A stretch of 64,000 bases of DNA from positions 1-64,000 of the IMG/VR virus record IMGVR_UViG_3300025940_000007, one strand, 5' to 3'. Positions 24,250 through 26,475 of the stretch are shown here, in pieces. How positions within the stretch are numbered: position 1 is the first letter of the stretch; the number at the start of each line of letters is the position of its first letter. The notes under the pieces are model-generated. The model was not told the origin of the DNA, did no database searches, and saw only the letters and a program-made list of their open reading frames with translations. Position numbers and translations under genes: made by a program. Origin of the DNA: a virus.

Positions 24250-24279
24250 TTGCATCGTACAAAAACAGCGTGTTACAAT
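24250..24279 (+). promoter_or_regulatory. sigma70-like promoter for the tas operon
   Basis: TTGCAT-18 nt-TACAAT with an extended -10 TG. Confidence 0.6.
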
Positions 24280-24301
24280 TCGCACGCCGAGTAATCGGCA
24301 C

Positions 24302-24351
24302 GAGCCCCGGCCAATGTTCGGTTGAAACCCTATAAATCAATGCCGGGGCTC
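24302..24351 (+). ncRNA. TIGR-like unit U8 in the tas operon leader
   Basis: GAGCCCCGG-CCA-ATGTTCGGT-TGAAACCCT-ATAAATCAA-TG-CCGGGGCTC. Confidence 0.88.
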
Positions 24352-24372
24352 ACCTCTAATTTAGGAGCAACC

Positions 24373-25017
24373 ATGAGCATCAGATCAATCGCCATCGCGG
24401 CTCTACGCGAGCACGGTGGCAAGCCCGAGAAGGCTACCGCTGCGTTTGTGCAGGCGGCGCGCAAGGCGGGCAAGCTCAATGAGCTCGCTCTGGTTTATCT
24501 GCGGATGATCGCCTCGCAGGGCATCGTTGATGCGGTCGCTACGGGCGCCAGTAGCGGCACCGAAAAACCGGTCAGCCCGCGCGTCGCCGCCGTGCTGTCG
24601 GCGCCCAGATCGAACGTCACACCGATCGACACAGCCCGCCGATCGCCCTCCCGCAAGCTCGCCGCACGTGGCGCAATGGCCGAGAGCGTCGAGGCGGTTT
24701 ACGAAATGCAGTTCGACGGTCGCGCGCTCGGTCGCGTGCAGTTCGGGCAGTTGATCACGATGAAGCGGGAGTTCATCGAGGATGCGGCGTCGATGCTCGA
24801 ACACGGCAAACTGTTTGTGCGCAATGCGGTGCTCGCTGGCTTGATCCACGATCACTGCGTCGCTGCGGACGATCTCGCCGAGGTGCGTACGCTGGTCGCG
24901 CCGAAGAAGCTCGCCGCTATGGTCGCACAAGCGGATCGAGAAGCACCAAAGAGAATCGCCGAGGCCACGAGGCGCGCGGCGGAAGCAATGGCAACACCAA
25001 AGGAGCTAGCACGATGA
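24373..25017 (+). CDS. hypothetical protein coupled to tas (candidate accessory factor)
   Basis: AGGAGCAACC RBS; ATGA overlap with tas. Confidence 0.75.
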   Translation: MSIRSIAIAALREHGGKPEKATAAFVQAARKAGKLNELALVYLRMIASQGIVDAVATGASSGTEKPVSPRVAAVLSAPRSNVTPIDTARRSPSRKLAARGAMAESVEAVYEMQFDGRALGRVQFGQLITMKREFIEDAASMLEHGKLFVRNAVLAGLIHDHCVAADDLAEVRTLVAPKKLAAMVAQADREAPKRIAEATRRAAEAMATPKELAR

Positions 25018-25985
25018 AGAAGCCCACCAAGACGCCCGCGAAGAAGACCGCCGTCAAGAAGACTGCGAAGAAATCCGCTCCCAAAAAGAGCGGGAGCCCG
25101 GCCAGTCTCGCCATGAAATCCTCTGATGGATTGCCGGGCTCACAAATCCTCGACAAGATCATCGAGAGCCACCGTGCGCGGCGGTTCGCGATGGGCATCC
25201 AGCAAGTGCTGGATCGCAAAGTCGAGAGCTATGTCCGGATCAACTTCACCGAATGGAATGCGAACGACGCCGAGGACAGCCGTGCGAAGTCCAACGCCGA
25301 GGCGCTGGCGCTGCTCAAGGCGGCACGCGAGGGTGAAGGTGACGATGAGCTCATCCGCGCGGTGACGATGTCGGACAACGCCCGGGCGCATGCCGACGCC
25401 GAGCGCCTGCGCCACGAGAAGGTGATGACGTCGCTGGCCAAGGATCTGCCGATCGCACCGTGGATCGACTCGGTGCCGGGCCTCGGCTTGCTCGGTGTCG
25501 CCACGATCCTCGCTGAGACTGGCGATCTGTCGAAGTATGCGAACGTCGCCAAGGTTTGGAAGCGCCTTGGCTATGCTCCGTACAACGGACTCGCTGGCTC
25601 GACGTGGAAGCGACCGAAATGGCGCAACGGTGAGCCCGCGCTCAGTGCCGAAGAGTGGACGCTCAATCCGTTCAACGGGAAGCGCTACGGGATGTTGTTC
25701 TCGATCTCCGACTCGCTGCTCCGCAAACAGTGGATCGGCAAAGCGAAGACCGAGGACGGCAAAGGCAAGGCCGATGGCAAATACGGCGCCGTATACGAGA
25801 AGCGCCGCGAGCACACTGCGGTGACGCACCCGGAGTGGACACCGAAGCACAGCCAGATGGACGGCCTTCGCATCATGATGAAGGAAGTCATTAAGGATCT
25901 GTGGGTCGAATGGAATCGACACGCAGCGGACGGGCGCCACACTTCTCGTGATCCCCTTGGGACGGATGCGCCCGTCCAACTCTAA
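25014..25985 (+). CDS. TasA-like RNA-guided protein (IS110-related Nop domain, no nuclease domain)
   Basis: helical region followed by SVPGLGLLGVATILAETGD..Y..VAKVWKRLGYAP (IS110/IS116-type HhH); C-terminal H..GLRIMMK..KDLW..W; no RuvC DEDD or HNH motif seen; flanked by dual-spacer array. Confidence 0.85.
   Translation: MKKPTKTPAKKTAVKKTAKKSAPKKSGSPASLAMKSSDGLPGSQILDKIIESHRARRFAMGIQQVLDRKVESYVRINFTEWNANDAEDSRAKSNAEALALLKAAREGEGDDELIRAVTMSDNARAHADAERLRHEKVMTSLAKDLPIAPWIDSVPGLGLLGVATILAETGDLSKYANVAKVWKRLGYAPYNGLAGSTWKRPKWRNGEPALSAEEWTLNPFNGKRYGMLFSISDSLLRKQWIGKAKTEDGKGKADGKYGAVYEKRREHTAVTHPEWTPKHSQMDGLRIMMKEVIKDLWVEWNRHAADGRHTSRDPLGTDAPVQL
25094..25141 (+). ncRNA. TIGR-like unit embedded in the 5' end of the tas CDS
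   Basis: GAGCCCGG-CCA-GTCTCGCCA-TGAAATCCT-CTGATGGAT-TG-CCGGGCTC. Confidence 0.8.
25928..25977 (+). ncRNA. TIGR-like unit embedded in the 3' end of the tas CDS
   Basis: GGACGGGCG-CCA-CACTTCTCG-TGATCCCCT-TGGGACGGA-TG-CGCCCGTCC. Confidence 0.75.
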
Positions 25986-25986
25986 T

Positions 25987-26475
25987 CGGTCGCCATCGTC
26001 CCGTTGAAAACCAACGCCTTGGTGCGACCGCGAGCCCCGGCCTGCTGCGCTGTGAAGCCCACGAGGGTGCCGCCGGGGCTCACCTATTCGAGATCGTCTG
26101 CAGCGATGCAGGCGAGAGCCAGAGACCACCTAACGCGCGGAGCCCATTATTGCTCTGTCTCTGGCTCACCAATTCAAGACACGGTCGCCTCAGTGCTTGT
26201 GAAGCCCAGAGATGGCATGCGACCGTAGAGCCACGGCCCGTTGTACTTGCGAAGACCAAAGGTCACTTGGCCGTGGCTCACCCATTCAAGATCACCGCCA
26301 GCGATGGCGGTGCGAGCCCCGGCCACACTGCTTGTGAAGCCCGTTCTCGGATTGCCGGGGCTCACCTAATTCGAACTACGGTCGCCACGATGCAGATGGA
26401 AACCAACCAGCCGATGCGACCGCGAGCCCCGGCCACTCCTCGGATGGAAAACCCATGCGCTATTTGCCGGGGCTC
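25987..26475 (+). ncRNA. TIGR-like stem-loop array 1 (8 units plus 2 empty hairpins)
   Basis: units with CGGTCG or GAGCC stems, each CCN-9 nt-loop repeat-9 nt-TG. Confidence 0.9.

Follow-up and report, generated by a model that had tools for sequence, protein, structure and literature searches.

A stem-loop TIGR-TasA system of an uncultured myovirus, with guides that may be aimed in part at related phages

The 64,000 nucleotides considered here (the window), which are the first 64 kb of the 76.7-kb IMG/VR virus record IMGVR_UViG_3300025940_000007, carry a gene for a nuclease-less Tas protein, tasA, together with 40 stem-loop guide units, and thereby raise the question of what the guides of a phage-borne TIGR-TasA system are directed against. 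As a system type the locus is already known. Stem-loop arrays associated with TasA have been described, with CCA as box C, UG as box D and the two spacers separated by an A-rich tetraloop (Faure et al. 2025, PMC12045711), and both boxes are also those of ParTasR. A catalogue of 2,559 stem-loop arrays has since been presented by Xu et al. (2026, bioRxiv 10.64898/2026.09.09.750476), who also reported units within disordered regions of tas open reading frames (ORFs), disordered TasA N-termini and transcriptional repression by TasA, and the structure of PlTasA with its stem-loop guide has been solved (Guan et al. 2026, bioRxiv 10.64898/2026.08.11.744272); DNA binding and repression of transcription by TasA are documented in both of the latter studies. 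The novelty that a first-pass annotation, made from the sequence alone, had implied for the system type is therefore not borne out. According to the two main TIGR-Tas papers, it is not known what the spacers target in nature or, consequently, what nuclease-less TasA is for, since most TIGR-Tas loci lie on short metagenomic contigs. It is the evidence on targets that is new here.

The record has an estimated completeness of 90% and the phage has many sequenced relatives, so that actual alleles are available for comparison with its guides, and the comparison points to an exclusion of related phages combined with self-protection through silent recoding. The explanation that accounts best for the whole of the data, and which we hold to be highly probable, is that of a stem-loop TIGR-TasA system of a myovirus with guides partly aimed at kin phages. 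Without the evidence on targets, the locus would be an ordinary addition to a family of which thousands of arrays have been catalogued.

The tasA ORF has an AAGGAG ribosome-binding site ahead of it and starts with an ATG that overlaps the stop of an upstream ORF of 214 residues. Its product of 323 residues begins with a disordered, lysine-rich segment (residues 1-42), which is followed by a coiled coil (43-143) and a Nop C-terminal domain (148-308). The coiled-coil dimerisation region and the Nop-type RNA-binding domain that characterize Tas proteins are thus both present by fold search, profile and model, with the Nop/coiled-coil core starting at residue 43. The first-pass annotation had described a motif of the IS110/IS116 type and no RuvC/DEDD or HNH domain, and in agreement with that, Pfam returned a borderline match to Transposase_20 (22.1 bits, residues 151-208) and none to DEDD (PF01548), RuvC or HNH, while no nuclease domain was found with NCBIfam either. 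Since it has no nuclease domain, a protein composed of a coiled coil and a Nop domain corresponds to the TasA subtype. Over profile positions 9-215 of 215 it matches the NCBIfam model TIGR_Tas_endo (NF052498, a model named after the endonuclease forms) at an E value of 1e-19, and a family profile built from 40 homologues finds the solved structure of TaTasR (9MTY) at an E value of 9e-6, and TasH as well. The AlphaFold model (pLDDT 84, pTM 0.76) has a helical C-terminal domain, and when it was compared with the PDB, ranks 1-10 were all occupied by TasH and TasR proteins with a probability of 1.0, ahead of the IS621 and ISCro4 recombinases. In sequence, the protein is just 14-18% identical to the Tas proteins of known structure. 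Homologues number at least 172, all of them metagenomic and with variable N-termini; no tblastn match to TasA was obtained among GenBank phages, and the genome collection yielded a single relative, which is encoded in a Xanthobacteraceae metagenome-assembled genome (MAG) on a contig of 4.6 kb. The ORF is almost certainly that of a TasA of the TIGR-Tas family and of the stem-loop guide type, as the earlier annotation had proposed and as is supported by the protein (NCBIfam, profile and fold) and by the RNA design alike.

The weak IS110 signals in these searches could alternatively be taken to mean that a decayed insertion sequence of the IS110 family, or a transposase remnant, is present here together with hairpins resembling bridge RNA; besides the Transposase_20 match, there is a score of 26 bits against the NCBIfam IS110 model NF033542, and IS621 and ISCro4 do appear as weaker fold matches. 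The cut-off of that model is however 140, the protein has no DEDD/RuvC domain, and the fold search places TasH and TasR above the IS110 recombinases. In addition, the RNA component consists of 40 single-loop, dual-spacer units instead of one two-loop bridge RNA, and the protein family recurs at 45-76% identity in phage contigs with arrays of the same kind. The data already contradict this origin, which is scarcely credible.

The guide units follow the formula stem, CCA, N9, TG, N4, CCA, N9, TG, stem, that is, a 9-nt spacer A and a 9-nt spacer B, each with a box C (CCA) before it and a box D (UG) after it, separated by a 4-nt A-rich loop and enclosed by flanks that are variable but palindromic and form stems. 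The spacer length expected of TIGR-Tas units is 8-12 nt. All 40 units lie on the plus strand, between 5.6 and 58.6 kb, in three arrays, at two places inside tasA and as 12 solitary units, the latter comprising the leader unit at 24302, nine more among the plus-strand early genes and two that are antisense within the minus-strand late operon. The loop motif alone, when no stem is required, occurs 45 times on the plus strand and 4 times on the minus strand, as compared to 0-6 occurrences in shuffled sequences, and at least five further stem pairs accompany 27 of the 45 plus-strand motifs versus none of the 4 on the minus strand. A strict scan, with minima of 6 bp for the stem and 4 for the box score, returned 35 units on the plus strand, none on the minus strand and no more than one in any shuffle; the total of 40 includes three irregular units (10491, 50368 and 58562). 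The stems comprise 16 different sequences with compensatory pair changes and therefore show covariation. A search of positions 23500-27500 against Rfam gave no family.

The unit formula given in the first-pass annotation was correct, and the leader unit, the gene of unknown function between it and tasA, and the array downstream, which has nine units, are all present as it had listed them (Table 1). The extent that it had assigned to the system, 24250-26475, contains every part it listed, but units are also found outside these limits, from 5607 to 58635, and two more lie inside tasA itself. The latter were flagged by the repeat finder as hairpins with a 30-nt spacing; the unit design is complete in both, and they coincide with the low-confidence N- and C-terminal tails of the TasA model. 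In the arrays, each short-stem unit runs directly into a long-stem unit, after which comes a short pyrimidine-rich tail, and in array 1 this takes the form of an alternation between a CGGTCG-type stem of 6-7 bp and a GAGCCCCGG-type stem of 9-10 bp. Two slots of short-stem units in array 1 are occupied by hairpins of 8-9 bp with a GNRA tetraloop (GCGA) at 26094-26115 and 26293-26312, possibly as signals for processing or as units that have decayed.

Some of the solitary units (7975-8028, 12432-12483 and 15739-15790) are situated at operon ends and are followed by T-rich runs (e.g. GCTTTTCC and ACCTTTTTT), and such units may have an extra role as transcription terminators or attenuators. This location, after genes and ahead of T-rich runs (e.g. 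at 7975, 12432 and 15739), is what would be expected if the hairpins in general were structural repeats, be it of the repetitive extragenic palindrome type, terminators or RNA-stability elements, with the Nop protein merely located nearby. Structural repeats would not however account for box C and box D occurring exactly twice per unit, for variable segments that are always 9 nt long, for covarying stems, for the confinement of all units to one strand or for the recurrence of the design with tasA homologues elsewhere; nor would they explain the complementary ninth bases and the exact matches in relatives that are described below. We regard this possibility as very improbable.

The first indication of how the guides are read comes from the spacers themselves. 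In a set of 93 distinct guides, drawn from four phages, the final base of spacer A and that of spacer B form a Watson-Crick pair in 46 and a G-U pair in 20 more, while for other position pairs Watson-Crick complementarity is seen in 20-28 of the 93. Complementarity of the ninth bases is what would be expected if both addressed one and the same base pair. Targets of 17 bp, in which spacer A is joined to the reverse complement of spacer B and the two have their central base pair in common, were sought in 2.06 Mb of related phage DNA, collected via conserved genes and from five whole relatives, the latter being ~70-76% identical over 25-51% of the phage genome. Matches above control level were obtained in this geometry only; the reverse complement of B followed by A, A followed by B, B followed by A, the contiguous 18-bp reading and readings with gaps of 1-2 nt were likewise tried in the relatives and all remained at control level. 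Exact matches were found for 3 of the 40 guides as compared with 1 of 800 controls with mis-paired A and B spacers (Fisher p 3.9e-4), where the controls are the more permissive side, an unspecified centre being commoner among them. For this clade, the sequence statistics favour a target of 17 bp in which the ninth bases of both spacers address one central base pair.

The three guides address coding sequence, and their sites are homologous across many relatives. Guide 8888 corresponds to the WMQERQ codons of an ATPase-like gene (phrog_8638), which is matched exactly at five counted loci, on two distinct contigs, and with a single mismatch at 31 places, and guide 50368 to QKVTVE codons, 32 nt into the 784-residue structural gene that adjoins this guide in the phage, with exact matches in two relatives and one mismatch at twelve places. 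Guide 25928, which is one of those inside tasA, corresponds to the codons of a WDGEKW motif with which tail-fibre genes are furnished in their N-terminal part, and is matched exactly at 13 places, several of them in the same relative. Five relatives, four of which are 92-100% complete and one 70%, have neither tasA nor guide units, yet carry exact targets. A further close and independent relative, L067, has solitary units at positions matching those of the phage, and one of its guides fits the ATPase gene of six relatives with one mismatch, at a site other than that of guide 8888; its own ATPase allele differs from this guide at 5 positions, all of them synonymous.

None of the 40 guides comes within one mismatch of the phage's own genome, in four A/B orders and at offsets from -2 to +2, and there is a mild excess of near matches. 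Where a genic site of the phage differs from a guide at 2 of 17 positions, the differences are exclusively synonymous in 4 of 7 cases as compared with 4 of 112 in controls (p 2.8e-4), and the rate of such synonymous near-self sites per guide is 0.10 versus 0.0026 in controls (Poisson 4e-6); the sites of guides 8888, 13920 and 50368 are listed in Table 1. Two tail-fibre paralogues beyond the window (G000 66841-67443 and 69288-69758; L146 2841-3443 and 5288-5758, minus strand), which have an N-terminal FPDAP...WDGEKW motif in common, show two silent differences each from guide 25928, at positions that are not the same in the two genes. According to a count by eye, the own alleles inspected often have codons ending in A or T (GAA, CGT, ACT, GAT, AAA), the guide usually having a codon ending in G or C, and at the site of guide 8888 every TIGR-less relative listed has GAG, while the phage and L067 have GAA.

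Near matches of this kind could also be understood in a different way, namely that the guides regulate the phage's own genes, with solitary guides binding their neighbours despite 2-3 mismatches and with the matches in kin reflecting homology only; the leader guide would bind the operator region by its own promoter, and the timing of early and late expression would be RNA-guided. Consistent with that, the best self near-match lies within 0.1-2.4 kb of the guide for five or six of the solitary guides, and that of the leader guide, at 24201-24218 (spacer B 9/9, spacer A 6/9; local p ~0.01-0.08), falls over an operator-like palindrome. Published TasR is active on a site with just 6/9 pairing to spacer A, and regulation of the viral life cycle is among the possible roles named by Xu et al. 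(2026, bioRxiv 10.64898/2026.09.09.750476). A co-evolving regulator should however retain perfect pairing, whereas no guide is within one mismatch of self and three are exact in relatives; the A/T-ending codons of the own alleles occur despite a third-position GC (guanine plus cytosine) content of 0.70-0.87 in the called genes of the genome, and the GAG shared by all listed TIGR-less relatives at the site of guide 8888 likewise speaks against this view. Own-gene regulation is thus unlikely as the main purpose of the guides, and targeting of kin alleles by a subset of them, as suggested by the sequence comparisons, appears somewhat better founded than its negation.

It has to be noted that several observations weigh against the targeting of kin or against parts of its argument. 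Exact targets exist for only 3 of the 40 guides, and two of these have an unspecified central base, leaving 16 fixed bases. The 26 array guides are without a target in the related phage DNA compared, and the guides of two further tas-carrying contigs, L002 (33) and L003 (18), have no match within one mismatch in all DNA fetched. The tests on exact matches and on near-self sites are not independent, the relatives being homologous to the phage itself, and the two-mismatch self sites could be bound by TasA too if it tolerates that number of mismatches. Published structures show 18-bp (9+9) targets as opposed to the 17 bp favoured here, and the candidate guide 15739 fits 18 bp and not 17. On the side of the protein, the TIGR_Tas_endo score of 71.3 bits is under the curated cut-off of 100. 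Among other guides, 58562 has its best site in the relatives at two mismatches and its own-genome site at four, with none exact in the set compared, and for guides 13920 and 15739 two homologues of the target gene were found, neither of which is exact.

The many guides without a match leave room for the view that the system is directed mainly against the bacterial host or against unrelated mobile elements, the matches in kin being a minority or incidental, which is compatible with the explanation preferred here. Related phages contain no match to some 30 of the guides, among them every array guide, and silencing of the host and suppression of mobile elements are among the roles discussed in the published papers. 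When the structural protein of the phage was compared with 401 Hyphomicrobiales genomes, prophage gene matches were found in 21, but the best of these are only 39-42% identical, which is too little to fix the host genus. We consider host or mobile-element targets a possible, if rather doubtful, main purpose of the guides.

In the model that follows from the preferred explanation, the steps at the molecular level are taken from published relatives: the units would be cut out of plus-strand transcripts, one tigRNA would be bound per TasA dimer, its two spacers would each base-pair with a different DNA strand within a single short site, and the bound complex would block transcription, perhaps also replication, in the absence of cutting. 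By the same analogy, the phage TasA probably binds DNA without cleaving it. Some guides would be aimed at kin versions of conserved essential genes, namely the ATPase-like early gene, a structural gene and tail-fibre genes, from which the phage's own copies would escape via synonymous differences. The combination of kin-allele guides with synonymous differences in the own copies points to competition between related phages within one host, and a guide would be inherited together with its insensitive allele because solitary guides tend to adjoin the gene they address. The evidence leans, by a little, towards this full form of the model, in which TasA and its guides would act as an RNA-guided, non-cutting weapon against TIGR-less kin, with own copies recoded synonymously, guides and immune alleles linked as cassettes, and sites of 17 bp.

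The tas module lies in an early regulatory region (Table 1). The promoter that had been annotated ahead of the leader unit is a consensus-level match by eye, which the promoter scanner did not call. The leader unit ends 21 nt ahead of the 214-residue gene, for which no Pfam, NCBIfam or PHROG family and one close homologue were found; a homologue 39% identical adjoins tasA in L002, and another of 61% (P0121) is encoded on a contig of 82,090 bp, the contig of P0003, which with P0002 is one of the closest TasA homologues, likewise having 82,090 bp. L002, a viral contig, encodes a TasA that is 61% identical and has 36 units around the gene, and L003, a contig of a Xanthobacteraceae MAG, encodes a TasA that is 45% identical, with 19 units around the gene; the architecture of these units is the same as in the phage and their spacers are unrelated. 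In the phage two cro paralogues bracket the module, whereas L002 has a single cro copy, with the cro-gcrA pair on the opposite side of the module. Because the arrangement of the cro flank differs in this way, the tas module looks like a movable cassette, and recombination between cro copies may have brought it in or shifted it.

Table 1. Features of the tas module, its guide units and near-cognate sites in the window
Feature	Position	Strand	Basis or remark
Leader tigRNA-like unit in the operon 5' leader, 9-bp stem	24302..24351	+	Repeat and unit scans
tasA, nuclease-less Tas protein	25014..25985	+	Pfam, NCBIfam, family profile, AlphaFold, fold search
Guide unit inside tasA, disordered N-terminal region	25094..25141	+	Repeat finder, unit scan, AlphaFold model
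Guide unit inside tasA, 3' end	25928..25977	+	Repeat finder, unit scan
Array 1, 9 units	25987..26475	+	Starts include 25987, 26032, 26116, 26181, 26228, 26314, 26379, 26424
Array 2, 4 units	32524..32728	+	Unit scan
Array 3, 14 units	35991..36728	+	Unit scan
Seven solitary units between early plus-strand genes	5607..15790	+	Starts 5607, 7975, 8888, 10491, 12432, 13920, 15739
Two solitary units	28408-28457, 31096-31147	+	Unit scan
Solitary unit with long outer stem, antisense in the late (minus-strand) operon	50368..50435	+	Adjoins stop of gene 50439-52793
Second solitary unit in the late operon, outer stem as in the 50368 unit	58562..58635	+	Irregular unit
Own near-cognate site of guide 8888, ATPase-like gene 6367-7953 (WMQERQ)	7492..7508	-	Two mismatches, both synonymous
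Own near-cognate site of guide 13920, gene 14202-14552	14275..14291	-	Two synonymous mismatches
Own near-cognate site of guide 50368, gene 50439-52793	52746..52762	-	Two synonymous mismatches
Promoter-like site, TTGCAT, 18 nt, TGnTACAAT	24250..24279	+	Consensus match by eye; not called by scanner
Operator-like palindrome (24196-24211), overlapped by self near-match of leader guide (24201-24218)	24196..24218	.	Divergent regulatory gap
Gene of unknown function, 214 residues, translationally coupled to tasA	24373..25017	+	ORF
Cro/YdaS-like helix-turn-helix gene, left flank	23929..24180	-	Paralogue of 26474-26752, 40% identity
Cro/YdaS-like helix-turn-helix gene, right flank	26474..26752	-	Stop codon overlaps last stem of array 1

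The gene content of the window (GC content of the genome, 60%) includes a large terminase, a tail sheath, tail proteins, an endolysin, a helicase and a Toprim primase, as well as RecT with a PDDEXK partner, collagen-like tail fibres and a GcrA-like regulator, and from this set, including the tail sheath, the phage, which comes from soil, is an uncultured myovirus of ~77 kb. Its host is probably an alphaproteobacterium. The gene for the GcrA-like cell-cycle regulator (23460-23954, minus strand; Pfam GcrA E 6e-7) adjoins a cro-like gene; it suggests that the host may be an alphaproteobacterium and that the phage may interfere with the cell cycle of its host, and as a basis for assignment it points to the Alphaproteobacteria and to no finer level. 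In the tail-fibre region past the window, a protein of 650 residues (G000 64892-66844; L146 892-2844, minus strand) has very long glycine-rich tracts of low complexity, followed by repeated Ig-like segments. Among the early genes, a protein of 482 residues (29605-31053, plus strand), which is encoded between the solitary guide units 28408 and 31096, belongs to no PHROG family, and viral contigs yielded no relative for it.

As regards known systems, box C/D small nucleolar ribonucleoproteins of the Nop5 type use kink-turn boxes of the forms RUGAUGA and CUGA, in contrast to the CCA and UG boxes of the phage, and no gene for their partners L7Ae and fibrillarin was seen among the neighbours scanned, where no search was aimed at such partners. 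With the bridge-RNA recombinases of the IS110/IS621 type the phage system has in common a Nop-like RNA-binding domain (Transposase_20) and guide loops that, in the phage by prediction, pair with both strands, and the order of spacer A and the reverse complement of spacer B is that of the left and right target guides in bridge RNAs; it differs from them in that a DEDD domain, a donor loop and element ends are all lacking.

The closest solved folds are those of TaTasR (9MTY) and SpTasH (9W04), which share the CCA and UG boxes, the A-rich tetraloop and the tandem spacers, which in the phage would likewise pair with opposite strands. These two proteins, however, possess RuvC or HNH and cut DNA, whereas the TasA of the phage is nuclease-less, and their arrays consist of fixed edge and loop repeats that are processed to 36 nt, in place of whose edge repeats the phage has long and variable stems.

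In terms of the proposed function, the nearest parallel is provided by virus-borne mini-CRISPR arrays, which are reported to be used in conflicts between related viruses (Medvedeva et al. 2019, PMC6858448). Guides directed against close relatives and a role in the exclusion of kin would be common to both, but the mini-CRISPR arrays employ CRISPR chemistry and the Cas nucleases of the host, whereas the phage TIGR-TasA system is self-contained and would be non-cutting.

The greatest likeness is to the stem-loop TasA systems themselves. PlTasA (from a Peromyscus leucopus gut contig), BlTasA and MbTasA are, like the phage protein, nuclease-less combinations of a coiled coil and a Nop domain with a disordered N-terminus; the stems vary and are yet palindromic, units are found upstream, downstream and inside of the tas ORF, and the systems are phage-borne. 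RNA-guided binding of DNA and repression without cutting have been published for TasA and would, by analogy, extend to the phage. The phage differs from them in having ~40 units spread over 53 kb, two of which are antisense in the late operon, in its arrays of paired short-stem and long-stem units, and in that a 17-bp site is favoured as opposed to 9+9 = 18 bp. If the reading presented here is true, it would provide TasA with a concrete, testable function, supply a targeting rule of 17 bp with a shared centre for this clade, and offer ready pairs of matched and mismatched alleles for binding assays. The special value of this locus in comparison with the other stem-loop TasA systems is that candidate natural targets can be named for it, with statistical support, together with a clade-specific 17-bp rule and a pattern of self-protection, all of which are directly testable.

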